DNA from: Victivallales bacterium
GTDB lineage: Bacteria > Verrucomicrobiota > Lentisphaeria > Victivallales > GWF2-38-69
Reading direction: 5' to 3'
NCBI GenBank assembly: GCA_965228125.1
Contig: OZ245791.1
Location: 385,596-449,595, forward strand
Length of the DNA stretch: 64,000 bases
Below, piece after piece: positions 11,079 through 56,865 of this stretch. Each line of letters opens with the position of its first letter. Position 1 is the first letter of the stretch. The translations under genes and the position numbers were made by a program. Under the pieces are notes generated by a model that was given only the letters and a program-made list of their open reading frames with translations, was not told the origin of the DNA and ran no database searches.

Positions 11079-11098
11079 CTAAATCATTTCAGTTAGTA
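11073..11098 (+). repeat. Terminal minimal attC-like remnant
   Basis: AGCTAAC-taaatcatttca-GTTAGTA: only the outer boxes remain. It overlaps the stop of the convergent DUF2062 gene. Confidence 0.35.
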
Positions 11099-11589: not shown

Positions 11590-11597
11590 AAAATCGG

Positions 11598-11963
11598 TTA
11601 TCTCCTGATTGAAATCATTAACTGTTTGCTATTTACGGAATCTCCTGCTTTCACCTCTACCTTATCTATGGTGCCTGCAATAGGAGACAAAATTGAGTTT
11701 TCCATCTTCATAGCTTCGAGAACAAGAAGCTTTTCCCCTGATTCCACATGTTGGCCTTCCTGCACACCGATTTCTACAATAAGCCCCGGAAGCGGAGCAT
11801 TGACAGAAAGAATACCTGAAGATTCTTTTTTCGATGAAGCATGGGCTAATTTGTCTGATAATTCGGCAGAGAGTTCCCTTTTGGAAAAACCAGCACAGGG
11901 AGTTTCTTCGACCTCCACGACATAGCATTTATCATTTACTTTTACATTGAAAGTTTTCTTCAT
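11598..11963 (-). CDS. Biotin carboxyl carrier subunit (1.3S / MmdC-like)
   Basis: 121 aa. Biotinyl-lysine motif LEAMKMEN near the C-terminus. Confidence 0.85.
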   Translation of the reverse strand: MKKTFNVKVNDKCYVVEVEETPCAGFSKRELSAELSDKLAHASSKKESSGILSVNAPLPGLIVEIGVQEGQHVESGEKLLVLEAMKMENSILSPIAGTIDKVEVKAGDSVNSKQLMISIRR

Positions 11964-11984
11964 AACAATTTACCTCAGAGTTCG

Positions 11985-12146
11985 TCAGTTTAGTACAACT
12001 TCTGTTGTTTCGTAGCGTTCGCCATTTTGAGAAACAATGGAAGTTATTTTGAATTCAGCAGTCCCTATGCAGGAAGCTATAGCAGAATATATTGCTGCTA
12101 TTTCTTCCTGAGGAATTACCAGTTTATTACAACAACAATTAGTCAT
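11985..12146 (-). CDS. Small (53 aa) subunit-like ORF between carboxyltransferase and BCCP
   Basis: Not in the track (below 60 aa). Reads MTNCCCNKLVIPQEEIAAIYSAIASCIGTAEFKITSIVSQNGERYETTEVVLN and fills the gap in the operon. It sits where the small delta/epsilon subunits lie in mmd/oad clusters. Confidence 0.45.
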   Translation of the reverse strand: MTNCCCNKLVIPQEEIAAIYSAIASCIGTAEFKITSIVSQNGERYETTEVVLN

Positions 12147-12158
12147 ATCATAACCTGT

Positions 12159-13718
12159 TTATAATGGAATATTACCGTGTTTCCTTGCGGGTCTCTCGAC
12201 ATTCTTTGTTACAGATATATCAAGAGCCTTTATTATCACTTCTCTAGTTTCTTTTGGATCTATAACGCCTTCGATATAACCTCTGGAAGCGGCCACATAA
12301 GGATTATTGAACATATCCTTGTATTCCTTGATTCTCGCCTTTCTGGTTTCTTCAGGATTCTGTGATGAAGATATATCCTTGGCAAATATAATATTAGCCG
12401 CTCCATCTGCGCCCATTACAGCTATTTCAGCATTCGGCCACGCATAAACAAAATCAGCCCCAAGATGCTGCGAAGCCATGGCAATATATGCACCGCCATA
12501 GGATTTCCTAAGGATAATGGAAACCATAGGAACAGTAGCTTCCGAGTATGCATAAAGGAGTTTAGCTCCATGCCTGATTACACCACCGTGCTCCTGACCT
12601 ACGCCTGGAAGAAATCCCGGAGTATCTACGAATGTAATAATAGGAATATTGAAAGCATCGCAGAACCTGATAAAACGGGATGATTTGTCAGATGCATCAA
12701 TATCTAAAACTCCGGCAAGAATATTTGGTTGATTTGCTATTATGCCTACGGATTTCCCGCTTATTCTGGCAAAAGCAGTTACCATATTCTGCGCAAAGTA
12801 AGGTTGAACTTCAAAGAGACTATCTTTATCAAAAACCAGATTCAGTATGTCTCTTATATCATAGGCTTTCTTTGGGTCAAGAGGCACGATATCATATATT
12901 TTTTCGTCAAGTCTATACTCTATATCATAAGCTGCGTCTCCAATCTTATTCTTATTTGAAGAAGGAATGTAAGAAAGAAGTTTTCTTGCGATATTTAACG
13001 CTTCCTCATCGCTCTTGGCAGAAAAATGAGCAACGCCGCTTACACTATTGTGCACTTTAGCACCACCAAGTCCATTCTTGTCAATATCTTCATTCGTAAC
13101 AGCTTTTACAACCGCAGGGCCTGTAATAAACATTTGTGAGAGTTCATCAACCATTATTATAAAATCTGTTATTGCAGGAGAATAAACAGCACCTCCTGCA
13201 CAAGGACCGGCTATTACGGAAATCTGAGGAATCACGCCTGAAGCATGAGTGTTTCTGAGAAAAATTCCACCGTATCCGAAAAGGGCATCCACTCCTTCCT
13301 GAATTCTGGCGCCGCCCGAATCATTGATACCTATAAGAGGCATCCCGTACTTCATGGCCATATCTTGAATCTTCATGATTTCCTTGGCATGCATTTCGCC
13401 TAACGAACCGCCTTGCACTGTAAAGTCCTGGGAAAAGACAGCAACTTTCCTGCCATCTATAGTACCAAAACCTGTTATTACCGCATCATAAGGTATTTCC
13501 TTTTTATCAAGGCCGAAATAATAACATCTGTGTTTTACAAACTTACCTATTTCTTCAAAGCTGCCTTCGTCCAGCAAAAGCTCAACTCTTTCTCTGGCAG
13601 TGAGTTTTCCTTGGGCATGCTGCTTATCTATAGCCGCACTCCCACCGCCTAAATCGAGTTTATCCATTTTAGCTTTCAGGCCATTTACAAGCTCCTTCAT
13701 ATTTTCTATTTCAGACAT
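12159..13718 (-). CDS. Methylmalonyl-CoA carboxyltransferase / propionyl-CoA carboxylase beta-type subunit
   Basis: 519 aa. Acyl-CoA carboxyltransferase pattern (GGSLGEMHAKEI, GPCAGGAVYSPA, RKSYGGAYIAM). Confidence 0.9.
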   Translation of the reverse strand: MSEIENMKELVNGLKAKMDKLDLGGGSAAIDKQHAQGKLTARERVELLLDEGSFEEIGKFVKHRCYYFGLDKKEIPYDAVITGFGTIDGRKVAVFSQDFTVQGGSLGEMHAKEIMKIQDMAMKYGMPLIGINDSGGARIQEGVDALFGYGGIFLRNTHASGVIPQISVIAGPCAGGAVYSPAITDFIIMVDELSQMFITGPAVVKAVTNEDIDKNGLGGAKVHNSVSGVAHFSAKSDEEALNIARKLLSYIPSSNKNKIGDAAYDIEYRLDEKIYDIVPLDPKKAYDIRDILNLVFDKDSLFEVQPYFAQNMVTAFARISGKSVGIIANQPNILAGVLDIDASDKSSRFIRFCDAFNIPIITFVDTPGFLPGVGQEHGGVIRHGAKLLYAYSEATVPMVSIILRKSYGGAYIAMASQHLGADFVYAWPNAEIAVMGADGAANIIFAKDISSSQNPEETRKARIKEYKDMFNNPYVAASRGYIEGVIDPKETREVIIKALDISVTKNVERPARKHGNIPL

Positions 13719-38530: not shown

Positions 38531-39053
38531 ATTGCCGCCTTATATTTTTGAAAGTTACAAAATCTTACCTTGGTTTATAATTTTAAGGCGAATCCGTACA
38601 ACTGCAACAAAATCTTCTTTATAATAGTTCCGGTTTAGCATAAGCATTTAGTCATCAAACAGAGACAAGTAAATCTTAGTTCTTTCCAATGATCATCGAT
38701 ATTCTCCAAATTATCACTTGCCATGAATGCTAACAGCCCTTACTGCGACGTCTCTCGTAACAAGAAAAATCCCAAATAATTATTATAAAAAGATGCACTC
38801 CTCTATAAAAACACAGTGGCGGAATTTACAGAAAAATCATAAAATAAAGAGTAGCACTTTTGTTAAAAAAGAGAATCTGCATAGAGCCAATTAAATATTT
38901 GCATTCTATCGGCTGTTGTTTTGTACTCATTGAATTCTAATGATTTGAATAAAAAATGCACAAATCCGTATTTAAGGAGTTCGCTTAGGCCGCTTCTTAA
39001 TGTTAAGACATACCTTTTTGGGGAAAAAACAGATGGATTTTAGGAGTAAACTT

Positions 39054-39980
39054 ATGACAAGAACTGCTTATATTTCTGCTTTATTGGTTTGGCTGGCCAT
39101 TCTCTCTAGTTGTTCAAACTACATAACTACTGAAACAACTCAGAGTATGGATATTACCAGAACTCCAATAAAAAGTGAGCCTTCTTTAGAAGTCTCTGGC
39201 ATAAATAGCGAATCTATCATTAAGATAAAAGCAGAAAAGCTAATAGAGGAAAAAGTAGTTACAGACGAAGTCACAAAAAGAGAAGATGTCAGCACTCCGT
39301 ACAGAGGATACAGGAAACTCTACCAAATGCCATTAGGGCTTTTGCTCTTTCCTGCAGCAATAGTCGTAAGTGTCGCCGATGTATGTACATTAGGCCTGAT
39401 CCCAAATAGATTTACTGACGACCTGCTCGATTATTCTTTTACCGGAATGAACCCATTTCTTTGCTGGGAAGACAATAGCACCACAGTACGAACCCTGGAA
39501 TCATCAACCAAAAGGCAAATTGATGCCAAAGAGGAAATTACTGTGCTGCCATTGAGAAATGTTGACCTATACATAGTCAGTAATACTTCAGAAACATTCG
39601 ATTTAAAAATCGATGATAATAACCATTTGAATGTAACGTTGGTAAAAATAGCAGTTGAAGGAATTAAGAATCCGATTGACTTGCGTTATTTTGATCTCTA
39701 CTTAGAAAGCACTAACAACAAACCTGTTACCAAAATAGTAATAAGCAGAAAAATGGCTTTTAAATTCTTAGAAGCAAAAAAAATGGTTGACTCTCTGCAA
39801 ATAAACTCGTCTCCTGCAAATCTGGTTGAATGTGTGCTTGGACTGGAGAATCTTGGCTTTTCTGAGTATGCACTGAATGTTGAAAACGAATACAAAGAGA
39901 AAAACATTTCGGTTCCGGGATATAATGAGCAGTTTGATTCAGAAATGAAAAAGCAAATGAAGTTTTTCCCGCTAAATTAA
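39054..39980 (+). CDS. Lipoprotein, unknown function
   Basis: The ATG at 39054, 7 nt after AGGAG, gives MTRTAYISALLVWLAILSSC with a lipobox (LSSC). The rest has no recognisable family. Confidence 0.6.
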   Translation: MTRTAYISALLVWLAILSSCSNYITTETTQSMDITRTPIKSEPSLEVSGINSESIIKIKAEKLIEEKVVTDEVTKREDVSTPYRGYRKLYQMPLGLLLFPAAIVVSVADVCTLGLIPNRFTDDLLDYSFTGMNPFLCWEDNSTTVRTLESSTKRQIDAKEEITVLPLRNVDLYIVSNTSETFDLKIDDNNHLNVTLVKIAVEGIKNPIDLRYFDLYLESTNNKPVTKIVISRKMAFKFLEAKKMVDSLQINSSPANLVECVLGLENLGFSEYALNVENEYKEKNISVPGYNEQFDSEMKKQMKFFPLN

Positions 39981-40223
39981 GACACGAATGATTTCATCTA
40001 TGATTCTATAGAGAACTGCCCGAATAGATAGGTTCTTTCCAAAAAGCTTCCCGATAGAAATTCTAATCCTGATATTTTGAGTCCTAAGAAAAAAGTTTTA
40101 ATTTTTGTATTTTGTAACACATTTATTGCGGCTTATTTAATATATCTTTATCTAACCGGCCGGCTTATTATCTTTTAAGTGAGGTTGAAAACTCCCTCTT
40201 TCTAATTAATATTAGCCTTGAAG

Positions 40224-41495
40224 ATGGAGTTAAAACTAGAGAAAAAATCAATCCTGTATGCAATAGCAGGTACAGTCCTGGAGTGGTACGATTTTACCAT
40301 TTACATATATCTTGCGCCCATCCTCTCTGATATATTTTTTCCTACACACGATAAATTCGCTACATTGGTTTCAATATTCGCCATATTTTTTGCAGGATAC
40401 CTTGCCCGCCCGATCGGAGGAATGTTCTTTGGAAGTCTGGGCGACAGGATAGGAAGAAAAAACACCTTGATTATTTCTATTTCTCTCATGACTCTCATGA
40501 TGATCATTACATCAATACTTCCCTCATACGCTCTAATAGGAATAGCAGCTCCTGTCCTTCTGGCTTTTACCAGGATTTTCCAGGGATTTTCCGTGGGTGG
40601 GGAATATTCAGGAGTGCTGGTGATTTTATCGGAAAAAGCGCCTGAGGGGAAAAGAGGAATCATTACATCCCTTGGGCCATTGGTAAACGGATTTGGCCTT
40701 ATTGCAAGTTCAAGCGTAGTCGCAGTGCTTTATGAAACAATGACTAAAGAGCAAATGATGACATGGGGATGGAGAATACCTTTCATAATAGGGTCTATAG
40801 CTGGGATTTTTTTGGTGGCACTAAGAACCAAAATGACAGAATCAGCTCATTTTGAATTATTAAAGTCTCAAAACAAACTATCAAAAAGCCCACTTCGCGA
40901 AGTGATAGCCCAATACCCTAAAAAAATACTTCTGGGAATGTCTCTCAGCGGATACGGGAGCATTGTTTATTATGTGACGATCGCATTTATTCCGACACTT
41001 CTGAGTTCATATCTCCATGTTCAGGAAAATATTGTAATGATGTTTTCTACGATTACAGCGATATTTTACACTCTTACTGCTCCATTCTGGGGCTTTATCT
41101 CAGATAAATTCGGGAGAAAAAAAGTATTAACTTGCGTTGCTGCCTTAATAGCAATACTAATCGTTCCTCTGTTATTGCTCATGTCATATCATAATCTAAT
41201 GGCTATCTTGGCAGCTGAAATAATATTAACGCTTTTAGCCGTAGCATTCGGTGTCTCATATGACACTGCCACTACAGAGCTATTCCCTACCAAGGAAAGA
41301 TTCAGCGGGATGGCAATAAGCTACAATGTCGGAATATCTCTCTTAGGAGGAATATCCCCTTTAATATGCACCTTCTTAGTGAAACTAATCGACAGTCCGC
41401 TCGCACCGGGATATTTTTTAATTATTTGCTCTCTTTGCATGCTTGTGGCTCTTACAAAGATGAAAGAGACTGCGTTTATACCTCTTGAGGATTAA
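40224..41495 (+). CDS. MFS metabolite:H+ symporter (MHS) family transporter
   Basis: EWYDFTIY, GGMFFGSLGDRIGRK and 12 TM. The track start at 40218 is a TTG two codons upstream. Confidence 0.8.
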   Translation: MELKLEKKSILYAIAGTVLEWYDFTIYIYLAPILSDIFFPTHDKFATLVSIFAIFFAGYLARPIGGMFFGSLGDRIGRKNTLIISISLMTLMMIITSILPSYALIGIAAPVLLAFTRIFQGFSVGGEYSGVLVILSEKAPEGKRGIITSLGPLVNGFGLIASSSVVAVLYETMTKEQMMTWGWRIPFIIGSIAGIFLVALRTKMTESAHFELLKSQNKLSKSPLREVIAQYPKKILLGMSLSGYGSIVYYVTIAFIPTLLSSYLHVQENIVMMFSTITAIFYTLTAPFWGFISDKFGRKKVLTCVAALIAILIVPLLLLMSYHNLMAILAAEIILTLLAVAFGVSYDTATTELFPTKERFSGMAISYNVGISLLGGISPLICTFLVKLIDSPLAPGYFLIICSLCMLVALTKMKETAFIPLED

Positions 41496-41601
41496 TACTT
41501 AGGCTCCTGTACATTTTTATCAAGTATAGACTTTTTCATACATTTCAGTTAGACTTTAAAATGCATCTCTTTAAGTAAATTCTTTCAATCTGAATATCGT
41601 T

Positions 41602-42462
41602 ATGGAAATTTACATCGGGCTTGACATCGGCGGCACAAAAATAATGGTTGGCGCAACTGACCCCAATGGAAAAGAATTGTCCAGAATTAATGTAAGTACA
41701 CCACAGTCGCTAAATGAAGGGCTGGAACTACTGCACAAATTGATTGAGAAAGTATCCAAAAAGAACTCTATTCTAGGAATAGGCGCCGCTATAGGAGGGC
41801 CGCTGGATTCGGAAAAAGGAATAGTTTCCCCGCTCCATCAGGAAGAATGGAGAAACATCCCTTTAAAAGAACTCATGGAAAAAAAATGGAACTGCCCTTT
41901 TTATGTCGATGTTGATACGAATGTCGCCGCTCTTGGAGAATACCATTTAGGTAAATACAAAGAAAAATATTTCCTGTACATCACTTTAAGCACAGGAATG
42001 GGCGGAGGATTCCTTATAAACGGCAAAATCTATCATGGGCTTTCTCATCCTGAAATAGGCCATCAACGCATCAGTTACCATTGCTCGCATCCAGAAAGAG
42101 TCCAATGCGAATGCGGCGGCGGTTCATGCCTAGAGGCACTTGTTTCAGGTAACGGTATAAGGAGAATCTACCATAAGAATGCAGAAAATCTTGACCGCCA
42201 TGAATGGAAAGAAGTAGCATATAACTTAGGTATGGGACTGAGAAATATTACCACCATTCTTTCACCGGAAATTATAGTTTTTGGTGGCGGCGTGGCCCTT
42301 GGCGGAGGAGAATATCTGATGGAATACGCAAGCAAATATATGCTTACAGGACTTAAACTGGTCAAGCCTCCGGTTCTCAAACTTTCCTGTTTAGGCTATG
42401 ATACAGCTTTGAACGGAGCATATTTTATCGCCACAGGAAAGCATTTGGCAATAAGCCATTGA
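41602..42462 (+). CDS. ROK-family sugar kinase
   Basis: GLDIGGTKI N-terminus. Zinc motif GHQRISY..HPERVQCECGGGSCLEA. Confidence 0.85.
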   Translation: MEIYIGLDIGGTKIMVGATDPNGKELSRINVSTPQSLNEGLELLHKLIEKVSKKNSILGIGAAIGGPLDSEKGIVSPLHQEEWRNIPLKELMEKKWNCPFYVDVDTNVAALGEYHLGKYKEKYFLYITLSTGMGGGFLINGKIYHGLSHPEIGHQRISYHCSHPERVQCECGGGSCLEALVSGNGIRRIYHKNAENLDRHEWKEVAYNLGMGLRNITTILSPEIIVFGGGVALGGGEYLMEYASKYMLTGLKLVKPPVLKLSCLGYDTALNGAYFIATGKHLAISH

Positions 42463-42577
42463 TATTGTTTCAGGGATTTTCTTGCGTTAGTTATCATGAA
42501 TGCTTCTATCCTTGGCAAAAACCTTTTTCAAGCTATAATCAGTTTTTATTCATAAACATGAACCGTTACCAGCAAGC
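42427..42577. repeat. Direct repeat copy 1 (last 36 nt of the ROK gene plus downstream spacer)
   Basis: Segment A (42427-42465) and segment C (42500-42577) recur at 45622-45660 and 45827-45902. Confidence 0.8.
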
Positions 42578-42605
42578 ATGACAGGACTCCGAAACTTGAC
42601 ACTTT

Positions 42606-43181
42606 ATGATTAAAACCAGAAATCTTCTCATTTCGATAGTATTACTCTTTAGTTTAATTGGGTTGAATGGATACGCTCAAAATACAACAAGAATTATTAG
42701 AAAAGATAACAATACATATGAAGTTTTTTGTGAAATTACATTTCCTAACAATTGCATTGACAAACTTTGGGATTTTTGTTGGGACATGAATAGTATTTCA
42801 AGAATACTAACAAATGAACCTGTAACCATTATTTTTTCTGAGGCAAATTCCATTCAAACCATTTCATACGATTATCAGTTCTTATTTATGCACTATTACT
42901 CAGAATATGAGCGAGAACAAAGTCCGAATAAAAAAATGATTAGTTTTAAACTCACAAAAAGTGAATGTTCAATACCCTTTATACCTAATTTGGAAAATGG
43001 CTATGGCACTTACACTTTAAAAACTAACAATAAAATAACAACGATGCAATACTATCAATATACTAAAACCAATGGCATTTTGAGTGACTTCTATTTTAAT
43101 TATATAAAAAAAGACATTGAAGGTTTTTTCTTTAGTTTTGAGTCTGAATTTAAAAAATCCTTAAAGAATGCTAAAAACTAA
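42606..43181 (+). CDS. Secreted hypothetical protein (signal peptide; possibly SRPBCC/START-like)
   Basis: MIKTRNLLISIVLLFSLIGLNGYAQ signal peptide. Aromatic-rich beta-type sequence. The stop overlaps the next start by 14 nt. Confidence 0.55.
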   Translation: MIKTRNLLISIVLLFSLIGLNGYAQNTTRIIRKDNNTYEVFCEITFPNNCIDKLWDFCWDMNSISRILTNEPVTIIFSEANSIQTISYDYQFLFMHYYSEYEREQSPNKKMISFKLTKSECSIPFIPNLENGYGTYTLKTNNKITTMQYYQYTKTNGILSDFYFNYIKKDIEGFFFSFESEFKKSLKNAKN

Positions 43182-44091
43182 ATATTTGCTTAACTCATTT
43201 AAATATTCTTTTCGTACAAAGCTTCTAAGGCAAAAAACTCCTTTTATTGCAGGGATTGTATTAAACAATGAGTGCAATTTATCATGCAGTCAATGTTCAT
43301 TGCAATTGGAAAGCAAAACATCATTGTCGTATCAACAAATATCAGATGGCTTAGACGAATTATATTCAATGGGAATACGTTCAATAGCAATAACTGGAGG
43401 CGAGCCTTTTATGTGGAAAGATGGCACGCTAAGACTAAACAATATAATAGATTTAATTTACAAGAAGAAATTTCTGGTTTCGAGTGTCTATACCAACGGT
43501 ACGTTTGCATTGAATACCACCTTTGACAATGTATTTGTAAGCATAGACGGAACAGAATTAACAACGAACAAACTTCGTGGTCCAATATTTAATAAAGTCA
43601 TTGACAATATTAAAGCATCAAACCATCCAAAAATATTTGTTAATTTTACTATAAATAGCCAGAATTTTCCCGAAATAGAAGTGTTCTGCCAGTACATAAA
43701 AACTATTCCTCAAATTAAAGGCATATTCTTTTATTTTTATACACCTTATAATACGATTGATAATTTATATTTGGAAAGGAGCAAAAGAATTGAAATAGCT
43801 AAAAGTCTCATTGCTCTTAAAAAAAAGTATATAATTTTAAACTCAAAAGCAGCACTTACTGATTTTATTAATGACAACTGGAGTCGACCATCGGAAGTTT
43901 GTGTGGTGTATTCAGATAAAGCAGAAATTGTAAAATGTTGCAGAGCAGTAAAAAACAAAGCAACCTGTAAAGATTGTGGATATTTGGGCTATTTAGAAGT
44001 TCTTGATGTAACTAAATTTAAGTTAAGTGCAGTATGGGAGGCATTCAAATATTTACCAAGTAAAAAATCAAGAAAATCATATGTTAATTAA
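43168..44091 (+). CDS. Radical SAM enzyme with a C-terminal Cys cluster
   Basis: CNLSCSQC (CX3CX2C), GGEPFMW, and C-terminal CVVY..CCRAVKNKATCKDCGY, suggesting an auxiliary Fe-S site. Confidence 0.8.
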   Translation: MLKTKYLLNSFKYSFRTKLLRQKTPFIAGIVLNNECNLSCSQCSLQLESKTSLSYQQISDGLDELYSMGIRSIAITGGEPFMWKDGTLRLNNIIDLIYKKKFLVSSVYTNGTFALNTTFDNVFVSIDGTELTTNKLRGPIFNKVIDNIKASNHPKIFVNFTINSQNFPEIEVFCQYIKTIPQIKGIFFYFYTPYNTIDNLYLERSKRIEIAKSLIALKKKYIILNSKAALTDFINDNWSRPSEVCVVYSDKAEIVKCCRAVKNKATCKDCGYLGYLEVLDVTKFKLSAVWEAFKYLPSKKSRKSYVN

Positions 44092-45355
44092 TACAATAAC
44101 GAATGGTATTCGTTCGTACTATGCTGGTAATTCAAATCAGTTTACATTTACAAAACATCATACTCCTGACTTCGATAACCACAGTTTTGACAGCTTGCAT
44201 TTATACATACATGTTCCATTTTGTGCAAACAAATGCCCATATTGTCCATACAATAAAATTGAAGTTGATACTGTTTTAGTAACGCAATTTTTCAATGCCC
44301 TTCATACTGAAATTGAACTATATTTTAATAAACTTGGGAAAATAAATCTCCCATCCATTTATTTCGGAGGGGGTTCTCCCGCATTGTTTCCAGAAGAAAT
44401 ATGTAAAGTTATAGATCATTTATCGAAACGATTTTCAATAAAAGGAGAATATTGTATTGAAATCAACCCCAATGACTGTTTTTTTGAAGAACTACAAGCT
44501 TTGAAAAATGGGGGTATAAGTACGGTAAGCATTGGGGTTCAATCTTTTAATGATAAAAACTTAAAAACAATTGGACGTTCTTATAATGGCAATATTGCCG
44601 AAAAAGCAGTTGAAATGGTACGTAGTATTTTCGATTCGGTAAATATTGATTTAATGTTTGCATTGCCAGCACAGGACGAGATTAGTATATTGAAGGACTT
44701 ATCTAAAGCAGTAAGTTATGGGGTAACTCAAATTACCACCTATCCGCTGTTTACATTCCCATATTCAAAAGTTGGTGATTATAAGAAAATAAAGCATGTG
44801 AAAATGCCAAAATTGAGAACACGAAAAAAGCAATATTTCACAATTTATGATACACTTATACAACAAGAATATAGTCGAGTATCGGTTTGGAGCTTTAAAA
44901 AGGGAGCAGGGAACAAATATTCATCAGTAACACGCGATGGCTATTTGGGAATGGGAGCAGGAGCAGGAACACATATGCCTAATGGCTATTATTTGAATAC
45001 CTTCCCAGTTAAAGCATATATTTCGGCATTAGAAAAAGGGAATTTTCCTTTAGCCCTAAAATTTAACATGAATACCAATATTAATAATTTGTTTTGGCTT
45101 TATTGGAGATTTTATGATACAAAGATTCCACTTGCCGATTTCAATAGTCGATTTAAAAATAATGCAAAGATAAAAAAACTATTATTTCTTTTCCAGACAA
45201 TGGGATTGCTTTCTGTTACCCCAAATGATTTTGTTTTAACACGAAAGGGGTCGTTTTGGCTTCACTTAGCACAAAATTATTTCTCTTTAGGTTATATAAA
45301 TAAAATTTGGTCGAATGCAATGAATAATGATTACCCTAAAGAAATCAATTTTTAA
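44081..45355 (+). CDS. HemN-like (class C) radical SAM enzyme
   Basis: HVPFCANKCPYCPY signature, GGGSP and GVQSF motifs. The ATG at 44081 overlaps the upstream stop by 11 nt; the track start at 44027 is rejected. Confidence 0.8.
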   Translation: MLINTITNGIRSYYAGNSNQFTFTKHHTPDFDNHSFDSLHLYIHVPFCANKCPYCPYNKIEVDTVLVTQFFNALHTEIELYFNKLGKINLPSIYFGGGSPALFPEEICKVIDHLSKRFSIKGEYCIEINPNDCFFEELQALKNGGISTVSIGVQSFNDKNLKTIGRSYNGNIAEKAVEMVRSIFDSVNIDLMFALPAQDEISILKDLSKAVSYGVTQITTYPLFTFPYSKVGDYKKIKHVKMPKLRTRKKQYFTIYDTLIQQEYSRVSVWSFKKGAGNKYSSVTRDGYLGMGAGAGTHMPNGYYLNTFPVKAYISALEKGNFPLALKFNMNTNINNLFWLYWRFYDTKIPLADFNSRFKNNAKIKKLLFLFQTMGLLSVTPNDFVLTRKGSFWLHLAQNYFSLGYINKIWSNAMNNDYPKEINF

Positions 45356-45621
45356 GAACTTTATAAAATGCCAGCAGGTAACAACGGGTATATCCAATGC
45401 GGGTTTCAGAGTTTTTGCAAGTTTAGTTCCCGCAGGCAAGTTTTGTATCGTGGGATAAGAGACGCAGCCACGCAAACCCCAACATCGCATACCGACGACC
45501 GTTAGCTAAAATACTACGCCGCATGAAGACAAAAAGAAAGAGATACGCGCTACCAGGAAGCAAAAACCGAGGATTTAGGTTCGGCTTAAGGTAGAATTAC
45601 CCCCTCAAGGGTTCATGTTTC

Positions 45622-45902
45622 ATCGCCACAGGAAAGCATTTGACAATAAGCCATTAATATCGCTACTGCGTCGTCAGAAGCCGTATCACTGTCGAGGTTC
45701 TTGAATTCTCACACCCGAGACGACCGTGATACGTAGCACGGGCATCTTGCCCGTGTTTATTTTCGAGTTTTAAAGAACCTAATCAATATATATTCATTAG
45801 CACCAAGCATATGTCATTTATCGCTAATGCTTCTATCCTTGATAAAAACTTTTTTCAAACTATAATCGGTTTTACTCTGAACATGAACCGTTAACGCCAA
45901 GC
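45622..45902. repeat. Direct repeat copy 2 (pseudo-copy of the ROK 3' end plus spacer, expanded by a hairpin-containing insert)
   Basis: A2 (45622-45660) differs from A1 at 2 of 39 nt. C2 (45827-45902) is roughly 80-85% identical to C1 by eye. The middle part is about 130 nt longer. Confidence 0.8.
45737..45763 (+). terminator. GC-rich hairpin plus T-run (REP-like family member / intrinsic terminator)
   Basis: CACGGGC-ATCTT-GCCCGTG followed by TTTATTTT. Preceded by a second 13-bp stem (45682-45694 with 45721-45733). Confidence 0.5.
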
Positions 45903-45927
45903 TTAAAAAGACAGACGCAACATAACT

Positions 45928-46833
45928 ATGATACCAGATTTTCAATCAATTATGCTTCCGTTCTTAAAGATAATTTCTGACGGAGAAGAACATACAACTA
46001 TTGAGACAAACCAAAAGTTGGCGGAACATTTCAACTTGACAGCCGAAGAACTAGACGAATATCTTCCAAGTGGAGCGCAAAAGACTTTTCCGAATCGTGT
46101 TGCTTGGGCTAAATCTTATTTAAAAATGGCAGGACTTCTTAAAAATACAAAACGGAGTTCATTTAAACTTACGGAGACTGGGAAAAGTCTTCTTGACACA
46201 AATCCAGAAGAAATTAACCTTAAATTTTTAAAAACAATTCCAGCTTATCAAGAAAGGACAGGTCGAACACGAGACGAGGATTCTTCATCAGACTCAGATA
46301 GTTCTCAAACATCAGCGACTCCTGAAGAGGTTTTAGAAAATAGTTATTTAACTATTCGAAAGAGTTTAGCACAGGAATTACTTTTCAAAATTAAAAGTAG
46401 CAGCCCTGCTTTCTTTGAAAGTTTGGTAGTCGAATTATTGGTAAAAATGGGATATGGTGGTTCAATCAAAGATGCTGGTCGTTCTATTGGACGTTCAGGA
46501 GACGAAGGAATTGATGGAATTATTAAAGAGGACAAGCTCGGACTTGATGTAATTTATGTGCAAGCCAAAAGATGGGAAAACGTTGTTGGCAGACCAGAGA
46601 TTCAGAAATTTGTTGGAGCTTTAGCCGGACAAGGAGCAAAAAAAGGAGTATTCATCACAACTTCACGCTACACCAATGAAGCAAAAGAATATCAACCGAG
46701 AAATGAGTCTAAAATAGTTTTGATTGACGGAGAGCAATTAGCTGAATTAATGATTGACCATAATCTTGCAGTATCGACAGTCAATACTTTTGAGATAAAA
46801 CGAATTGACAATGATTACTTTGGAGACGAATAA
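45928..46833 (+). CDS. mrr: Mrr-family restriction endonuclease
   Basis: N-terminal Mrr_N winged-helix pattern (FQSIMLPFLKIISDG..., NRVAWAKSYLKMAGLL). Catalytic core GDEGIDGII...LDVIYVQAKRW. Confidence 0.85.
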   Translation: MIPDFQSIMLPFLKIISDGEEHTTIETNQKLAEHFNLTAEELDEYLPSGAQKTFPNRVAWAKSYLKMAGLLKNTKRSSFKLTETGKSLLDTNPEEINLKFLKTIPAYQERTGRTRDEDSSSDSDSSQTSATPEEVLENSYLTIRKSLAQELLFKIKSSSPAFFESLVVELLVKMGYGGSIKDAGRSIGRSGDEGIDGIIKEDKLGLDVIYVQAKRWENVVGRPEIQKFVGALAGQGAKKGVFITTSRYTNEAKEYQPRNESKIVLIDGEQLAELMIDHNLAVSTVNTFEIKRIDNDYFGDE

Positions 46834-46978
46834 AAGCCTGGTGTTAACAAAAACTATATGTCAATTGGGGTTTCCGTGTTGACAACAAAGTCCGTAGCCC
46901 GCACCTACTTAATATCGGCTTGACAGGAAATCGCCTGCAATCCACACCTGCGTGTAGCTTCCAACGTTAAAATTTCAT

Positions 46979-48529
46979 TCAATTTGAAACAATATGAGTT
47001 TTGCTTTCTGATTCCTGTCTGCCCTTTTTAAGCTTCTTTATTGCAATTATCAAAGAAACAGCCACGCTTAGAGCCGCCAGGATATAAGCAAGAGAAATAC
47101 TTATAGACATTGCCATTTTCAGTTTTGAAACAAGAACCGGAACGTTATCATCCGTTATTATTCCCTTCAATACTTTGTCCCTTAGAATATCAGGAACTGA
47201 CAGGGTTTTCATTATTGTATAATAGTATTTTGAATCTATGGAAAGAGAAGACATTATTGTTTCAATCCGCATTTTATCAGAATGATTAAAAATAGTGGAC
47301 AGTAAAGCCAACCCAATAGTAGCCCCCATTTGCCGCGAAGTCTGAGTCAGGCCGGCTGCCTGTCCTCTTAAGGTAGCCGGAACTCTGTTTAGAGCATCAG
47401 TCTGGGAAGGGCCTATGGCAAAACCTGTTCCTACTCCAAGCAAAACCATATAAGGCAATATGAAGTATATGTTCTGAAACTGAAGGACAATCGGTGCTAT
47501 AATGTAACTCAGAAGCACCAGAGTAAGCCCGAAAAGTACAGGTTTTCTCACCCCTACCTTGTCAAAAAGCCTGCCTGAAACATGCACGACTGTCGCCAAA
47601 GGCAAAATGGTGGCCATAGAAATAAGTCCTGAGTGCAATGGGGAAAAGCCAAGAACATTTTGTATGTATATAACATTAAAAAATGTTTGTCCTATCATCG
47701 CCAGTGACAGAAAAAACAGAACAAAAAAATTCACGCCAAAATTATCATATTTGAACAATCTTAAGTCTATAAGAGGAGATCCTTTTTTAACTTCCAGTTT
47801 TATAAAAAATAGAAGCATACCTATCCCAACTAAGATAAGCCCGATAGTCAATGGGGAATCCCATCCCATATTGGTAGCTTCCTGCAACCCAAGGACCAAA
47901 CAAACTGCGCCAATAACAAAAGTAAGTGCACCTCGAAAATCAAATTTCTGTCCCCGTACTATAAACTCTTTCGGGCTTGAAATAAGTGTTAAAGTTATAC
48001 TTACTACAGCTACCGGAAGATTTATATAGAAACACCATCTCCAAGAAATATATTGAGACAAGAAACCGCCTATAAGCGGCCCCAATGCCATGAATACCAT
48101 TGATATCCCTGCATAAATGGACATAGCCTTTCCCCGCTCCTTCAGATCGAAAGATGTATTGACTATGGCAGCAGAAGCCGGCACCATCAAGGCACCGCCA
48201 ATTCCCTGTAAGCCTCTGGAAAATATCAGGAAAGTCCCGGTCGAAGCAATTCCGCAAAAAGCAGAAGATAATGCAAATATAACCATCCCGGCAATGAAAG
48301 TTTTCCTTCTCCCGATTATATCTCCTAAATTGCCCCCAACAGCTACCAGAGAAGCCACCGCTAGGACATAGGCATTCATTACCCATTCAAGCCCGGTGTT
48401 TGACATACCCAGCTGGTATTGAATAGTTGGCAGACAGACCCCTACTATTGTTCCGTCCAGAAATATCATCGACAATGAACCGGTCATTGCAATGAGAACC
48501 CACCATTTCCTGTTCTCTTCGTTAATCAC
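46979..48529 (-). CDS. MFS drug:H+ antiporter, DHA2 (EmrB/QacA) family, 14 TM
   Basis: 516 aa. LDGTIVGV, GNLGDIIGRRK and LQGIGGALMVP motifs. Confidence 0.85.
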   Translation of the reverse strand: MINEENRKWWVLIAMTGSLSMIFLDGTIVGVCLPTIQYQLGMSNTGLEWVMNAYVLAVASLVAVGGNLGDIIGRRKTFIAGMVIFALSSAFCGIASTGTFLIFSRGLQGIGGALMVPASAAIVNTSFDLKERGKAMSIYAGISMVFMALGPLIGGFLSQYISWRWCFYINLPVAVVSITLTLISSPKEFIVRGQKFDFRGALTFVIGAVCLVLGLQEATNMGWDSPLTIGLILVGIGMLLFFIKLEVKKGSPLIDLRLFKYDNFGVNFFVLFFLSLAMIGQTFFNVIYIQNVLGFSPLHSGLISMATILPLATVVHVSGRLFDKVGVRKPVLFGLTLVLLSYIIAPIVLQFQNIYFILPYMVLLGVGTGFAIGPSQTDALNRVPATLRGQAAGLTQTSRQMGATIGLALLSTIFNHSDKMRIETIMSSLSIDSKYYYTIMKTLSVPDILRDKVLKGIITDDNVPVLVSKLKMAMSISISLAYILAALSVAVSLIIAIKKLKKGRQESESKTHIVSN

Positions 48530-49879: not shown

Positions 49880-49910
49880 CCACGGGCATCTTGCCCGTGG
49901 TTCTTTTTTT
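49880..49910 (+). terminator. Intrinsic terminator after aspC (same hairpin family)
   Basis: CCACGGGC-ATCTT-GCCCGTGG followed by TTCTTTTTTT. Confidence 0.8.
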
Positions 49911-49920
49911 AAGAAAATCC

Positions 49921-50949
49921 ATGAAAAATTTCATATCTTCCCTGAATGATGCTTCTAAAAAACTCGGACTGGAATTCGATGAATCCATCTATACCGTCGA
50001 AAAAGAGTACCCTTTCCTTATATCTGACTATTACCTGAATTTGATAGATAAAAAAAAGCCTCTTTCTGATCCTGTCTTCATTCAGTCATTTCCATCTACT
50101 GCCGAAATGTCCGACGATAAAAACCTTTCTGAAGACCCGCAATGCGAAAAGAATTTCGTTCCTGTTCCTAAACTCATCCACAGATACAAAGACAGAGCGC
50201 TAATATTAACTACGAACAGATGTAGTTCTTATTGCCGTTTCTGTTTTCGTAAACGCTACTGGAAAAACGGCTCTGAAAAAGAAGATATTTCATCTGAAGA
50301 ATTGAATCAGATTCTTTCATATATAAAGAAAACAAAATCACTTGAAGAGATCATTCTCTCAGGAGGAGATCCTCTTATGCTGTCCAATGCCAAACTGAAA
50401 CTGATACTTGATTCTTTGCATGAATTGCCTCAAATTCGAACAATAAGACTGGCAACGAGAATTCCTGTCGCTTTCCCGCAACGCATCACACCCAGCCTTG
50501 TCAGGATGCTTTCAAAGTATAATAATCTCTGGATTGTGACCCATTTTAACCATCCCAACGAGATAACACCCGATTCCATGGAAGCATGCAGAAAAATAAC
50601 ATCAGCAGGTATACCAGTTTTGAATCAGACAGTACTGCTTAAAGGCGTCAATGATTTATCTATGACATTAAGGAAGTTATTCAGGGAATTGGTAAGCCAT
50701 AGGATAAAGCCTTACTATCTATTTCATATTGATCCGGTAAAGGGAGTTACTCACTTTGCCACCGGCATTGAAAAAGGGCTTGAGCTTATGCGCTATTTCA
50801 GGAAAAACCTTTCAGTCATGGCCACCCCGCAATTTGCAATAGACCTTCCTGAAGGCGGCGGCAAAGTATCCCTTCAACCCTGTTACACAGAAGATAACAT
50901 AAGTTTTCTGTCCACCGATGAAAATCGCAAAATAAAATATTACAGGTGA
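49921..50949 (+). CDS. KamA-family radical SAM aminomutase (lysine 2,3-aminomutase / EpmB-like)
   Basis: CSSYCRFCFRK motif, SGGDPL, and KPYYLFH-type region. The ATG at 49921 is preferred because the track TTG at 49891 lies inside the terminator hairpin. Confidence 0.8.
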   Translation: MKNFISSLNDASKKLGLEFDESIYTVEKEYPFLISDYYLNLIDKKKPLSDPVFIQSFPSTAEMSDDKNLSEDPQCEKNFVPVPKLIHRYKDRALILTTNRCSSYCRFCFRKRYWKNGSEKEDISSEELNQILSYIKKTKSLEEIILSGGDPLMLSNAKLKLILDSLHELPQIRTIRLATRIPVAFPQRITPSLVRMLSKYNNLWIVTHFNHPNEITPDSMEACRKITSAGIPVLNQTVLLKGVNDLSMTLRKLFRELVSHRIKPYYLFHIDPVKGVTHFATGIEKGLELMRYFRKNLSVMATPQFAIDLPEGGGKVSLQPCYTEDNISFLSTDENRKIKYYR

Positions 50950-54340: not shown

Positions 54341-55246
54341 TTAATATCGTGCTGCATCTTTAAAAAGAGCCAGAATAGTCTCTTTCTTGTAGCCAAGTCC
54401 TATTAGGACAAGCGTCGTTGTCTTAAAGTCGTTAAAGTGAGCCAAAGCGTCTTTAAGTTCGGCTTTTTCTGTAGTGCCGTCAACTATATATTCTTTCCCG
54501 TCTATTCTGGCAAATCCTTTCAGCCTGAAAACCACCTCTTTAATCTTATCCAAAAATTGATTGAAGCTATCAAAAGTAAAACCCTTATCCGATTCAAGAG
54601 TCATTGAATTAAAAGGGTCTGGCAAACCGCTTCCAGGAAGCTCATCTGCGATGGTTCCTTTCCTATCTAAATTATCCAGTAGGCCAACGTCCAAATCTGC
54701 GTACTTTGTAGCTATGACAGGAGTCATAGGAGCTAAACTCTTAACGCTTTCTTTTACTTTATCTAAAGCGTCATTATCAACCAAATCTGATTTATTGAGC
54801 AGAACAATGTCTGCGGATTCCACCTGAGACACAGGAGCTTTTGCGTATTTTCTTATCTTGATAAAATTAGTGGCATCGACCAGACAAACACATGCTTTAA
54901 GACGAATCCTGTTTCTCAGTGACGGAAGAGACAGCATCTTCTCCATCTCGTCAGTATCAGCAAGGCCGGTGGCTTCAATTATCAGAAGATCGGGTTTAAT
55001 CCTGTCAGCTATTCGTTCGACTTCCTTGATGAAATCAGTCCTGATGCAGATGCAGAAAAGACTCCCTTTATTAAGTTCGACCTTCTCATAATTTCCTTGC
55101 CTCAGAAGAGTTCCGTCAATCCCGACAGAACCGAATTCATTAATAAGTAAAACGCTTCTCTTAGAGCGATAATGCCCAATAAGCCTATTAAGCAATGTTG
55201 TCTTTCCTGCGCCAAGAAAACCCGTCAAAAGAATTGTTGGGATCAT
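54341..55246 (-). CDS. CobW/COG0523-type G3E GTPase
   Basis: GFLGAGKTTLLNRL P-loop and IIEATGLAD. CICI sits where the family usually has CxCC. Confidence 0.8.
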   Translation of the reverse strand: MIPTILLTGFLGAGKTTLLNRLIGHYRSKRSVLLINEFGSVGIDGTLLRQGNYEKVELNKGSLFCICIRTDFIKEVERIADRIKPDLLIIEATGLADTDEMEKMLSLPSLRNRIRLKACVCLVDATNFIKIRKYAKAPVSQVESADIVLLNKSDLVDNDALDKVKESVKSLAPMTPVIATKYADLDVGLLDNLDRKGTIADELPGSGLPDPFNSMTLESDKGFTFDSFNQFLDKIKEVVFRLKGFARIDGKEYIVDGTTEKAELKDALAHFNDFKTTTLVLIGLGYKKETILALFKDAARY

Positions 55247-56865
55247 TGAATATCCTTAATCCATTCCTTCACTACATCCACACTTGGTATTCTTCCTGAT
55301 GATTTGACTCTTCTTTGTTCTATCATAACAGCAGGCAATGTGTTTATGCCATAATCAGCAATGATTTTCTGATCTTCTATTAACTCTACATCAATATCGC
55401 TACCCAACTCCATTTTTGCCTGATCTGCCACCGATTCAAGAGAGTTCAATTGTTCCTTATTCCCGAAAAGGATAAGTTTATTGCTCTTTTTGGATACATT
55501 GATGTGAAGCTTCTCATTTATTCTTTTTTGAATAGCCTTTACGAGTTCTTCCTTGGATGGTATAACACTGACAAACTTGATAATTCCGTCGATACAAATA
55601 GTCGGTATATTTTTAACGCTTAACCACATCATGAATTCTACGGCCTCGCGCTGCTTTACTTTGTGCTCTCTCCATGCCACGAGATCTCCAAACTCTTCTG
55701 CTGCGCTTTTTACTGCTTCTACCATATATTGACATGGAGCACAAGCCTCAGAGTCCAAGGTAATCACATCTATGACAACCTTATCTGACACGCCGTATTC
55801 ATTAAGATTAACTTTCTTAACATCAGACACCTCTTCCGTCTTTGAAAGTTCTTTGACTATCTGCCTCTTATACGGATCGTTAACGATTTCAGTAACGGCT
55901 ATCAGATTTTCTATAGGCGTATCGTAAGGAAGATCGCATCCCGGGGCGAGGATAAAACCTTTTCCTACGCCAAATTCAATGCATTCCACAGCGTCTTTTC
56001 TAGCATCATCCTGAGTTCCCATAAGTAAAACTACAGTAAGCTTAAGATTTCCGCCGTAAGATACGCCATGACTTGCACAAATGTTTTTTACATAATCAAG
56101 TGGGATATTTTCATCTACAGAAATATTGTCCGGCTTCGTCTCGCACATCGCCTCAATATTCTTCTGGGCATGGCCGCAGACAAAGAAGGAACCGGGAACC
56201 TGCTTCTCTCTTAAAAAGGCAAACAATTCTGTCACGTATGGAGTTACAAACTCTCTGAATGCTTCAGGGGATATCTGGCTGGTCATCGGGTCCACAAGCG
56301 CAATAATATCGCACCCGGCTTCAATGTACATCTGTGCCATCTTTTTACAGACTTTGTTACAGAATGCCATTAATTCCATAACATCAGTTGGAGTGTCGTA
56401 CATGTCCATAAAAATATTTGTGCCCTTGAGGTGAAGAGCCAAAGTAAATGGTCCAATCACCAGGCCGTATAAGGCCACATCATGATTTTTAGCTTTTAAA
56501 AGCCTTGTCGCTTCCAGGGCGACCGGGATTCTTCCGCTCTTTTCATCTATTACCGTAAGTTCAGTCAGCTTTTTTGTATCCAAAATATGCGAAACTACTG
56601 CCGGAGGATTGTCTTTTGCCCAAACAAGTTCGCAACCAAGAGCTTCAGCCTCTATTTGCAAATCAAAGACCACAGGTATTCCGTCTGGTTTGTATAGCCT
56701 TATAGCCTCTTCAATCCCTTTGACTATGAGTTCAGGAGATTTTAAATATGTTTCTGCATCAACGCTTATGAGCTTTGCCCCGTGAACTCCTACAAAAGGA
56801 ACCCATGGTATTCTGGCACTAGTGTTTTCTGATCTTAACGCGTCAAAAAGCAGTTTTTTACCCAT
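55243..56865 (-). CDS. Uroporphyrinogen-decarboxylase-fold (MtaA/CmuA-like methyltransferase) protein fused to two thioredoxin-like domains
   Basis: 540 aa. The first 340 aa or so are URO-D-like. Then comes a CAPC-containing thioredoxin-like module and a second module resembling redox-active disulfide protein 2 (LPAVMIEQRRVKSSGRIPS) without its CxxC. Confidence 0.65.
   Translation of the reverse strand: MGKKLLFDALRSENTSARIPWVPFVGVHGAKLISVDAETYLKSPELIVKGIEEAIRLYKPDGIPVVFDLQIEAEALGCELVWAKDNPPAVVSHILDTKKLTELTVIDEKSGRIPVALEATRLLKAKNHDVALYGLVIGPFTLALHLKGTNIFMDMYDTPTDVMELMAFCNKVCKKMAQMYIEAGCDIIALVDPMTSQISPEAFREFVTPYVTELFAFLREKQVPGSFFVCGHAQKNIEAMCETKPDNISVDENIPLDYVKNICASHGVSYGGNLKLTVVLLMGTQDDARKDAVECIEFGVGKGFILAPGCDLPYDTPIENLIAVTEIVNDPYKRQIVKELSKTEEVSDVKKVNLNEYGVSDKVVIDVITLDSEACAPCQYMVEAVKSAAEEFGDLVAWREHKVKQREAVEFMMWLSVKNIPTICIDGIIKFVSVIPSKEELVKAIQKRINEKLHINVSKKSNKLILFGNKEQLNSLESVADQAKMELGSDIDVELIEDQKIIADYGINTLPAVMIEQRRVKSSGRIPSVDVVKEWIKDIQ

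Follow-up and report, generated by a model that had tools for sequence, protein, structure and literature searches.

An apparently imported operon for two radical-SAM enzymes and an exported protein between diverged copies of a ROK gene end in a Victivallales bacterium

How does a compact operon for two radical S-adenosylmethionine (SAM) enzymes and one exported protein come to lie between two imperfect copies of the end of a sugar kinase gene, and what might its products do together? The question is raised by a stretch of 64,000 nucleotides from a Victivallales bacterium (contig OZ245791.1 of assembly GCA_965228125.1, positions 385,596 to 449,595), here called the window, in which positions are counted from the first letter. 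Three genes, here genes 1, 2 and 3 and together the module, follow a gene of the ROK family, precede the restriction gene mrr, and are bracketed by direct repeats (Table 1). The evidence supports horizontal acquisition of the operon, which is foreign to this site, and its conserved core is the pair of radical-SAM genes. We think it on balance probable that the operon was imported by recombination between related but diverged (homeologous) sequences, and that its two enzymes tailor a hydrophobic molecule which the exported carrier binds as substrate or product.

Anatomy and origin of the operon

The three open reading frames (ORFs) between the repeats are intact and overlap by 14 and 11 nt. The repeated unit, about 175 nt of ROK 3′ end, stop codon and promoter-bearing spacer, is present twice, and its copies align as three collinear blocks of 87%, 84% and 79% identity. 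The first block, with its weaker flanks, pairs 42412-42465 with 45607-45660 (54 nt) and holds a core of 39 nt with 2 mismatches (42427-42465 and 45622-45660; 94.9%). The second pairs 42486-42546 with 45813-45873 (61 nt), and the third 42555-42587 with 45880-45912 (33 nt); a 21-nt core is identical in both copies. A first-pass annotation, made from the letters of the DNA without database searches, had already described this arrangement. The last 36 nt of ROK plus its stop do recur with 2 mismatches, the single spacer block of 78 nt that it drew was found again as the second and third blocks, each copy ends 15 to 18 nt before the next ATG (42606 and 45928), and the overlaps of the three genes are as it gave them. 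A gapped local alignment of the left unit against the right scored 93.6, compared with a mean of 23.4 (standard deviation 3.5, maximum 34.8) for 300 mononucleotide shuffles, so that the similarity is far above chance.

The two copies are not equivalent. The right unit has about 132 nt more than the left between the ROK fragment and the spacer (within 45661-45812), and these extra nucleotides contain a hairpin (45735-45757; 10 pairs, then a T run) that ranks best in the region as a terminator-like structure. The two best sigma-70-like sites of 41400-47100, found by consensus matching, fall one in each spacer copy: TTGGCA-16-TATAAT on the left (42512-42539), with 11 of 12 consensus matches, and TTGATA-16-TATAAT on the right (45839-45866). 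The layout of the right copy is like that of a whole, ordinary intergenic region, with a gene end, a predicted terminator, a predicted promoter and then mrr; the left copy looks like the same region minus the terminator.

Table 1. Features of the ROK-mrr region, in window coordinates
Feature	Position	Strand	Basis or remark
ROK-family sugar kinase, resident gene with duplicated 3′ end	41602..42462	+	286 aa; Pfam ROK 176 bits
Left unit copy: last ROK codons and stop (42412-42465), 20-nt linker, spacer with predicted promoter	42412..42587	+	Repeat alignment
Mobile module proper: nucleotide-level block common to cassettes of other genomes	42565..45406	+	blastn
Gene 1, exported 191-aa protein of predicted Bet v 1/SRPBCC fold	42606..43181	+	AlphaFold2 model, Foldseek, signal peptide
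Gene 2, 307-aa radical-SAM enzyme with five-Cys C-terminal domain	43168..44091	+	Pfam Radical_SAM, Fer4_12
Gene 3, 424-aa HemN-like (class C) radical-SAM enzyme	44081..45355	+	NCBIfam scores below cut-off
Filler segment X, from module end to orphan ROK fragment	45407..45606		GC about 0.45; no match in any fetched locus
Right unit copy: orphan ROK fragment KGSCFIATGKHLTISH and stop (45607-45660), about 150 nt with hairpin, spacer with predicted promoter	45607..45912	+	Repeat alignment
mrr, type IV methyl-directed restriction endonuclease, neighbour outside the module	45928..46833	+	Pfam Mrr_N, Mrr_cat; PADLOC mREase_IV 280 bits
Convergent transporter of the major facilitator superfamily (MFS), right border of variable region	46979..48529	-	Orthologue directly after ROK in L008

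Three independent lines of evidence support the horizontal insertion that the first-pass annotation had proposed: a dip in GC content, an empty site in a relative, and the presence of the same cassette in unrelated surroundings. GC content is 0.306 in the module, compared with 0.375 in the upstream and 0.399 in the downstream flank. When the ROK protein was scanned against one genome per species, its close relatives came only from metagenome-assembled genomes (MAGs) of Lentisphaerota/Victivallales type, with orthologues 75 to 84% identical. The closest genome found, the Lentisphaerota MAG ELA751 (locus L008; ROK 84% identical in amino acids), is syntenic with the window on both sides. In it, ROK is followed after 35 nt by a convergent MFS gene (10891-12423, minus strand), the orthologue of the window's, with up to 62% amino acid identity in tblastx segments. 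Since ROK there directly abuts the MFS gene, the interval 42463-46978, with module, filler, second repeat copy and mrr, is absent. The three genes are thus not universal at this locus, as an ancestral duplication would have had them. The insertion had been expected to show itself in an empty site where a single repeat copy separates ROK from mrr, and no such site was found; L008, the sole informative relative, has no mrr at the orthologous site.

The cassette was met in unrelated contexts at L001, L002, L003, L005 and L007, which have no other DNA in common with the window; the genes there are 189 to 192, 307 and 424 aa long and overlap as in the window. By blastn, nucleotide identity to the window is 82.7% for L001 (over 42565-45383), 75.5% for L003 (42596-45377), 79 to 80% for L005 (42565-45406, with an internal deletion in gene 2) and 79.4% for L007; it is 69.4% for L002. 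A further locus, L014, has the three-gene set by protein similarity, outside the nucleotide comparison, with a gene 1 that is 70% identical in amino acids. The block common to these genomes starts at about 42565-42596 and ends at about 45377-45406, that is, 10 to 40 nt before gene 1 and 25 to 50 nt after gene 3. Because no direct repeats flank the cassette at L001, L002, L003, L005 or L014, the bracketing repeats are a mark of this one insertion, and we rejected them as a property of the module. In some hosts the cassette has decayed: gene 2 is a 66-aa remnant in L005 (972-1172) and L006 (1212-1412), with genes 1 and 3 intact, and gene 3 of L002 is truncated to 233 aa (11476-12177).

As to what carried it, a plasmid and a phage were both considered and dropped, as gene 2 had no tblastn match in 72,556 plasmids and the stretch 42400-47000 no blastn match in 50,697 phages. 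Domain scans of the ORFs at 33.7-57.8 kb found no integrase or transposase from about 8 kb upstream to 12 kb downstream, in line with the first impression of the locus.

One more locus matches the window closely. Positions 1-7350 of L004 (ENA ERZ25074342 ctg11544_3x_l) are a near-perfect palindrome matching window 42439-46152, with arms 99.97% and 98.4% identical to the window and the module present twice, in divergent orientation. Rather than a real duplication, these two copies are most likely an artefact, produced by folding back in a 3x long-read assembly of the same organism.

How far do the three genes belong together? The gene 2 family is discrete, with about 100 clusters ranging from 100% down to 35% identity, and is set apart by a gap between E values of about 1e-48 and about 1e-10; a metagenome collection holds at least 531 gene 2 relatives. 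With ORFs called in 80 fetched loci, a gene 3 homologue adjoins gene 2 in 58 of 81 loci, and in 20 of the 27 that have at least 2 kb of flank on both sides. The genes come in five orders (1-2-3, 3-1-2, 2-1-3, 2-3 and 3-2), and a linkage that outlasts so much reshuffling speaks for a joint function. Relatives of gene 1, the most distant 28% identical, were recovered from 22 loci, and 9 of the 27 complete loci have one; in one locus gene 1 is convergent to the pair. An iterated hidden Markov model search with filters off detected no hidden gene 1 homologue beside pairs that lack it. The conserved core is the gene 2-gene 3 pair; gene 1 is an accessory, present at roughly one quarter to one third of the loci. 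Of the trio first taken as a unit, the link between the two enzymes therefore stands, and gene 1 belongs to only part of the family.

A recurrent fourth gene was looked for and rejected. Clustering of 312 neighbouring ORFs, with Pfam scans of about 60 operon-linked neighbours, gave only scattered themes: CPBP proteases, an AMP-dependent ligase with a 3beta-hydroxysteroid-dehydrogenase (3beta-HSD)/epimerase-type reductase, short-chain dehydrogenases/reductases, lipoproteins and DUF7670. The genes for CPBP/Rce1-like intramembrane proteases (L052 208-966, L062 83-634, L065 458-1171, L072 32-736) lie in clades without gene 1 and usually end 7 to 60 nt before gene 2; such a neighbour may hint at a peptide or prenyl-related substrate. 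In a sub-clade (L080 5311-7943, L084 152-2787, L086 41-2478) the ligase and the 3beta-HSD/epimerase-family reductase stand directly upstream of gene 2. In L080 and L086 gene 3 is directly followed by a lipoprotein with a weak CBM_4_9-like match, a position at which the contig of L084 stops, and in L080 the lipoprotein is followed by a tetratricopeptide repeat protein.

The pair and the trio do not appear in the text covered by full-text literature searches and class reviews, and none of genes 1 to 3 reaches a Pfam-specific or NCBIfam family cut-off, both in keeping with the earlier remark that this is not a described system. The specific protein families, the pairing of the enzymes and the secreted SRPBCC partner are uncurated and, as far as searched, undescribed, and each superfamily is known.

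The insertion scar and the route of integration

The orphan fragment in the right unit reads in frame as KGSCFIATGKHLTISH and then a stop. Its Cys codon specifies the residue present in the ROK proteins of L008, L009 and L010 (GACFIATG), and the resident ROK has Tyr (NGAYFIATG), so the fragment is no recent copy of the resident gene. A derived C-terminal ending, xISH*, is found in both window copies and not in the ROK of L008, L009 or L010. This combination points to descent of the two copies from two diverged alleles of one sequence, a ROK 3′ end plus spacer.

As the simplest account, we infer that the operon was inserted between the resident ROK stop codon and ROK's own terminator when DNA entered with a diverged version of the target on it, namely the last 50 nt or so of a ROK gene and the promoter-bearing spacer downstream of it. 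We imagine two routes. A circle may have integrated in Campbell fashion, recombining inside the homeologous stretch, or a linear fragment may have entered by homology-facilitated illegitimate recombination, with the illegitimate junction at 45606/45607. Either would give the order ROK, promoter copy, genes 1 to 3, filler X, orphan ROK end, terminator, promoter copy, mrr. The operon would then be transcribed from the left promoter copy, possibly also by read-through from ROK, and transcription would stop at the terminator of the right copy. A scar of this kind is an ordinary outcome of recombination with homeologous DNA; it illustrates how a cassette without an integrase may enter by carrying a diverged copy of its target, which is instructive, not surprising.

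Prophages that bring along a replacement 3′ end for their target gene leave such a pattern, as e14 and phage 21 do at the 3′ end of icd, and integrase-less cis-mobilisable elements are another class for comparison. As with e14 and phage 21, the insert in the window lies at the 3′ end of a gene that is left intact, and a diverged orphan 3′ end stands at its far side, giving imperfect direct repeats. Direct repeats that include the 3′ end of an intact target gene are also what one looks for in a site-specific island. Unlike those prophages, however, the window has no integrase beside either repeat, its repeat reaches beyond the gene into the promoter-bearing spacer, and the insert is only 3.2 kb long, consisting of three genes with metabolic content. 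Homologous or homology-facilitated illegitimate recombination would explain it as well as site-specific integration would.

Could the repeated unit itself be a dedicated recombination site, either an integron-like promoter-bearing capture site or the attL and attR of a degraded element, into which module and mrr were inserted site-specifically as promoterless cargoes? Both cargoes begin 15 to 18 nt past the unit, the conserved 5′ boundary of the module lies inside the unit's last block, and the identical 21-nt core would suit such a site. A 14-nt inverted repeat, AAGGGTTCATGTTT / AAACATGAACCGTT, is present at the ends of the right unit (45607-45620 and 45879-45892; also 42554-42567) and may be accidental or may form the arms of a recombination site; folded end to end, both units do better than shuffles (z -2.55 and -3.62). 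However, there is no tyrosine or serine recombinase from about 8 kb upstream to 12 kb downstream, no further copy of the unit exists in the window or the fetched loci, the five other loci have the module without such repeats, and the attC-like stretches fold no better than shuffles. We regard this explanation as clearly improbable.

Two narrower readings were rejected. For an integron cassette, R″/R′-like boxes had been seen by eye after gene 3 and after mrr. Folding of 45366-45515 and 46836-46978, on both strands, gave z +0.99, +0.13, +0.62 and -0.15, and no recombinase domain that would mark an IntI integrase with its attI was found in the ORFs at 33.7-57.8 kb. As to a tRNA or some structured RNA as target, no tRNA, tmRNA or Rfam match was found in the entire window, and a permissive Rfam scan of 45300-47000 also gave nothing.

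Several side observations concern the ground on which the insertion took place. Filler X, after the module, and 46834-46978, after mrr, are both relatively GC-rich and non-coding; they showed no Rfam match, folding signal or similarity to a fetched locus, and may be decayed donor DNA. Relative to L008 the window has a second insertion (38560-41580), between an aldose-epimerase-like gene and ROK, whose cargo is a 326-aa protein without a Pfam match (39000-39980) and a 425-aa MFS/sugar transporter (40218-41495). The surroundings of ROK have the look of a hot spot of gene gain. MAG ELA751 itself has two ROK paralogues (L008 and L010), 84% and 80% identical to the window's ROK and in different contexts, one preceding the MFS gene and the other an uncharacterised ORF that starts immediately downstream.

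The three proteins and what they may do

Gene 3 is a HemN-like class C radical-SAM enzyme, as first read. Class C enzymes bind two SAM and act through a SAM-derived methylene radical, and in HemN a GGGTP-type motif binds the second SAM; members of the class are HemN/CpdH, HemW, ChuW/HutW, MenK/MqnK, TbtI, NosN/NocN, Jaw5 and C10P (PMC10114718). The translation of gene 3 carries HVPFCANKCPYC (CX3CX2C) and FGGGSP, the counterpart of the second-SAM motif, and resembles HemN-like models over the greater part of its length. Pfam gives Radical_SAM at 63 bits and does not detect HemN_C. Against their cut-offs, the NCBIfam scores are 196/355 for PRK08629 (residues 38-401), 165/380 for STM4012, 162/400 for ChuW/HutW (TIGR04107), 158/205 for HemW and 117/325 for HemN, with one further score of 107/321 in the set HemN, HemW, ChuW/HutW, HemZ, STM4012 and PRK08629; ten gene 3 homologues likewise stay below all curated cut-offs. 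The only sequence matches in PDB are NocN (9p2u) and HemN (1olt). The C-terminal 194 residues, presumably the substrate-binding part, match no models but PRK08629, ChuW/HutW and, less strongly, STM4012; HemN and HemW are not among them. The subfamily is larger than that of gene 2 and also occurs alone, for example in Fervidobacterium thailandense.

Compared with the class as a whole, gene 3 has its CX3CX2C and GGGxP motifs and resembles HemN-like models along most of the protein, but it reaches no curated equivalog cut-off, has no Pfam HemN_C, and is paired with an unrelated second radical-SAM enzyme, a pairing that the available text of PMC10114718 does not describe. The ChuW/HutW-ChuX-ChuY system (PMC10114669) resembles the module as a small operon of a class C enzyme and a small ligand-binding protein, found in anaerobes with a patchy distribution. 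It differs in that gene 3 falls far short of TIGR04107, in that gene 1 is exported and, as judged from sequence and model, has an SRPBCC fold unlike ChuX, and in that the second enzyme here is a radical-SAM protein and not a ChuY-type reductase.

A formal parallel to the pairing is given by STM4011 and STM4012, which are paired radical-SAM proteins. There, too, a HemN-like enzyme stands with another radical-SAM enzyme, and gene 3 relatives score 154 to 187 bits on STM4012. These scores are, however, below the 380-bit cut-off, the other proteins of that cluster are absent here, and STM4011 is not among the 25 best NCBIfam matches of gene 2.

Gene 2 carries CNLSCSQC (CNLxCxxC in the family), GGEP and a C-terminal pattern C245-x11-C257C258-x8-C267-x2-C270 followed by GYLGY. 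The first-pass annotation had noted both the CX3CX2C motif and the C-terminal Cys cluster, and each of the five C-terminal Cys is indeed present in at least 90% of 18 aligned homologues over which conservation was scored. In the AlphaFold2 model (predicted local distance difference test score, pLDDT, 91) the five Cys are positioned after a beta-hairpin, where they probably hold an auxiliary Fe-S cluster. By Foldseek, the structures closest to the model are those of the twitch enzyme SkfB, the SPASM enzyme SuiB, BlsE, GDGT-MAS, viperins and anSME. Beyond Radical_SAM and Fer4_12, Pfam finds no SPASM domain (PF13186), and the isolated C-terminal 118 aa matched no NCBIfam model. Among NCBIfam models the whole protein scores best on PTO1314 (68 bits, cut-off 306); the N_Twi model gives 40 against 170, and the equivalogs moaA_archaeal (47/325), NirJ (36/515) and AhbC (32/650) are all below cut-off, as they are for 18 homologues. 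Like SkfB, SuiB, anSME, BtrN and MoaA, gene 2 would thus combine a radical-SAM core with a beta-hairpin and a Cys-rich extension; it differs from these SPASM/twitch enzymes in its family-specific Cys pattern with GYLGY and in lacking the SPASM Pfam domain. We call it a twitch-like enzyme with a family-specific putative auxiliary-cluster domain. For the suggested SPASM/twitch assignment, the fold likeness to SkfB, SuiB and BlsE speaks in favour, and the Pfam scan and the N_Twi model lend no support.

With both enzymes in view, a housekeeping role in tetrapyrrole metabolism can be weighed, in which gene 3 would serve as anaerobic coproporphyrinogen dehydrogenase or as haem chaperone, and gene 2, an enzyme of AhbC, AhbD or NirJ type, would be clustered with it by chance. 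Source annotations of homologues read coproporphyrinogen III oxidase and Fe-coproporphyrin III synthase, and there are the weak NCBIfam matches to HemN, HemW, NirJ and AhbC. The scores for HemN, HemW and NirJ are nevertheless far below cut-offs, HemN_C goes undetected by Pfam, and neither enzyme falls in a HemN or MoaA equivalog, as enzymes of housekeeping clades would. The module is patchy, low in GC, absent in the nearest relative and exchanged among unrelated hosts, and it has decayed in some of them, by deletion in gene 2 (L005 and L006) or truncation of gene 3 (L002). This role therefore seems to us highly improbable.

Gene 1 begins with a basic stretch, a hydrophobic core and then GYA/Q, and all 22 recovered family members have a signal-peptide-type N-terminus, from which it follows that its domain acts outside the cytoplasm. 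It had no Pfam, NCBIfam or PADLOC match. An AlphaFold2 model built with ten homologues (pLDDT 77, predicted template modelling score 0.72) has the order beta-beta-alpha-alpha-beta6-long alpha. Foldseek against PDB returned 279 matches at E<=1e-3, of which the 50 best, those listed, are all Bet v 1/START/SRPBCC proteins. Among these 50, with TM up to 0.74, are PR-10 proteins and, at the top (E about 3e-7, TM 0.6-0.7), the ZhuI aromatase/cyclase, Ara h 8, TTHA0849 and PYL receptors. The protein is thus predicted to have the Bet v 1/SRPBCC helix-grip fold, bearing out both the signal peptide and the SRPBCC guess of the earlier reading, and we presume from the model that it binds a hydrophobic ligand. 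It is like the superfamily, to which Coq10 also belongs, in the helix-grip fold, the long C-terminal helix and the presumed hydrophobic pocket. It differs in having no sequence-level Pfam family membership, in its Sec signal peptide, and in forming a tiny family linked to a radical-SAM pair (10 homologues in a word-indexed search of 5.8e9 proteins, and 52 clusters among 1.84e9 representatives in a profile search).

Two cytoplasmic radical-SAM enzymes together with an exported binder of hydrophobic ligands favour a two-step radical tailoring of a hydrophobic small molecule, and it is from this combination that we infer all of the chemistry proposed here. Genes 2 and 3 would act jointly in the cytoplasm on one such molecule. 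In the first step, gene 3 would use two SAM, a SAM-derived methylene radical leading to one-carbon transfer or related chemistry; in the second, gene 2, with its probable auxiliary Fe-S cluster, would carry out a further radical step. Gene 1, in the periplasm or outside the cell, would bind substrate or product. Among single substrates, a tetrapyrrole such as haem is the strongest candidate, because the C-terminal domain of gene 3 resembles ChuW/HutW and gene 2 has weak matches to NirJ and AhbC. As these similarities are far below family level, quinones and lipids are candidates as well. That the three-gene form has crossed unrelated hosts, at about 70 to 83% nucleotide identity, suggests that it probably acts on a substrate common to many of them.

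The main rival to a hydrophobic small molecule is a peptide or protein. The enzymes might modify a ribosomal peptide encoded elsewhere, or the gene 1 protein before its export; the class C enzyme would then methylate, as TbtI and NosN do in thiopeptides, and anSME and its sulfatase would offer a parallel. The best structural matches of gene 2 are SkfB, SuiB, CteB-type sactisynthases and anSME, CPBP/Rce1-like proteases stand directly upstream of gene 2 in L052, L062, L065 and L072, and a Sec-exported gene 1 protein would pass the cytoplasmic enzymes unfolded. But the cross-genome block bounds genes 1 to 3 so tightly that there is no space for a precursor gene, gene 1 is absent from most gene 2-gene 3 loci, and no Cys is conserved across the distant gene 1 family. 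Nor was any recognition element of RiPPs (peptides made on the ribosome and modified after translation), SPASM Pfam domain or set of leader peptidase and transporter found. On this evidence we rate peptide or protein maturation as unlikely, while still taking it seriously.

The position beside mrr suggests another role, in which the module would work with that gene in anti-phage defence, for example by making a viperin-like antiviral molecule. The module does adjoin a type IV restriction gene in a variable region, as was noted at the outset, and genes 2 and 3 have weak PADLOC matches to pVip (40 and 24 bits). However, the pVip matches (23-40 bits) span the generic radical-SAM core only, and gene 1 has no PADLOC match; no restriction or recurrent defence genes stand beside the module in the other contexts examined; and mrr has its own predicted promoter copy, with a predicted terminator between it and the module. 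The adjacency of module and mrr is incidental, and a part in defence strikes us as a very long shot.

Against the account that we favour, import by homeologous recombination and radical tailoring of a hydrophobic molecule, several points have to be set, some on arrival and some on chemistry. The sliding identity of ROK to its three relatives mirrors protein conservation and has no breakpoint such as recombination might leave, and the ROK profile together with the relatives found is compatible with either repeat copy being the native one. A single-copy site, whether ROK-terminator-promoter-mrr or ROK-promoter-module, was seen in none of the relatives found, so that the route is a reconstruction; and the putative promoters and terminator were called by consensus matches only. 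As to chemistry, the likeness of gene 2 to NirJ/AhbC and of gene 3 to ChuW/HutW, lying so far below cut-offs, does not identify the substrate. The nearest structures to the gene 2 model, mostly peptide-modifying enzymes, and the CPBP-type proteases that adjoin the pair in some clades would fit a peptide better. Finally, the module has no transporter.

Beyond radical tailoring as such, one can imagine a new pathway in which the two radical-SAM enzymes make or transform a hydrophobic molecule and the secreted Bet v 1-like carrier gives or receives it, all in mobile form; anaerobic ring-opening or methylation of haem, or modification of a quinone or lipid, would be examples. We advance this with considerable doubt. 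If true, it would be a portable system for capture or export of a small molecule, moving between Lentisphaerota and other hosts without a transporter or mobility gene of its own. The characterised members of both enzyme groups are known for unusual chemistry: they make or degrade haem, C-methylate unactivated carbons, form cyclopropanes and introduce cross-links. The module thus offers a compact, well-delimited and portable target for heterologous expression and radical-SAM enzymology, and introduces no new biological principle.

Neighbouring genes

The ORFs at 33.7-57.8 kb, other than those of the module, encode sugar transporters, a GNAT protein, ROK, Mrr, the MFS transporter, an aminotransferase-like protein, a KamA-like enzyme, a nucleoside hydrolase, NUDIX proteins, a Band 7 protein, CobW and a URO-D-family protein. 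The last of these (55246-56865, minus strand) is a 540-aa protein in which the URO-D-family part is fused to a thioredoxin domain, and the CobW-like GTPase gene lies just downstream of it. The KamA-like protein, a radical-SAM aminomutase (49891-50949, plus strand), is encoded a few kilobases downstream of the module.

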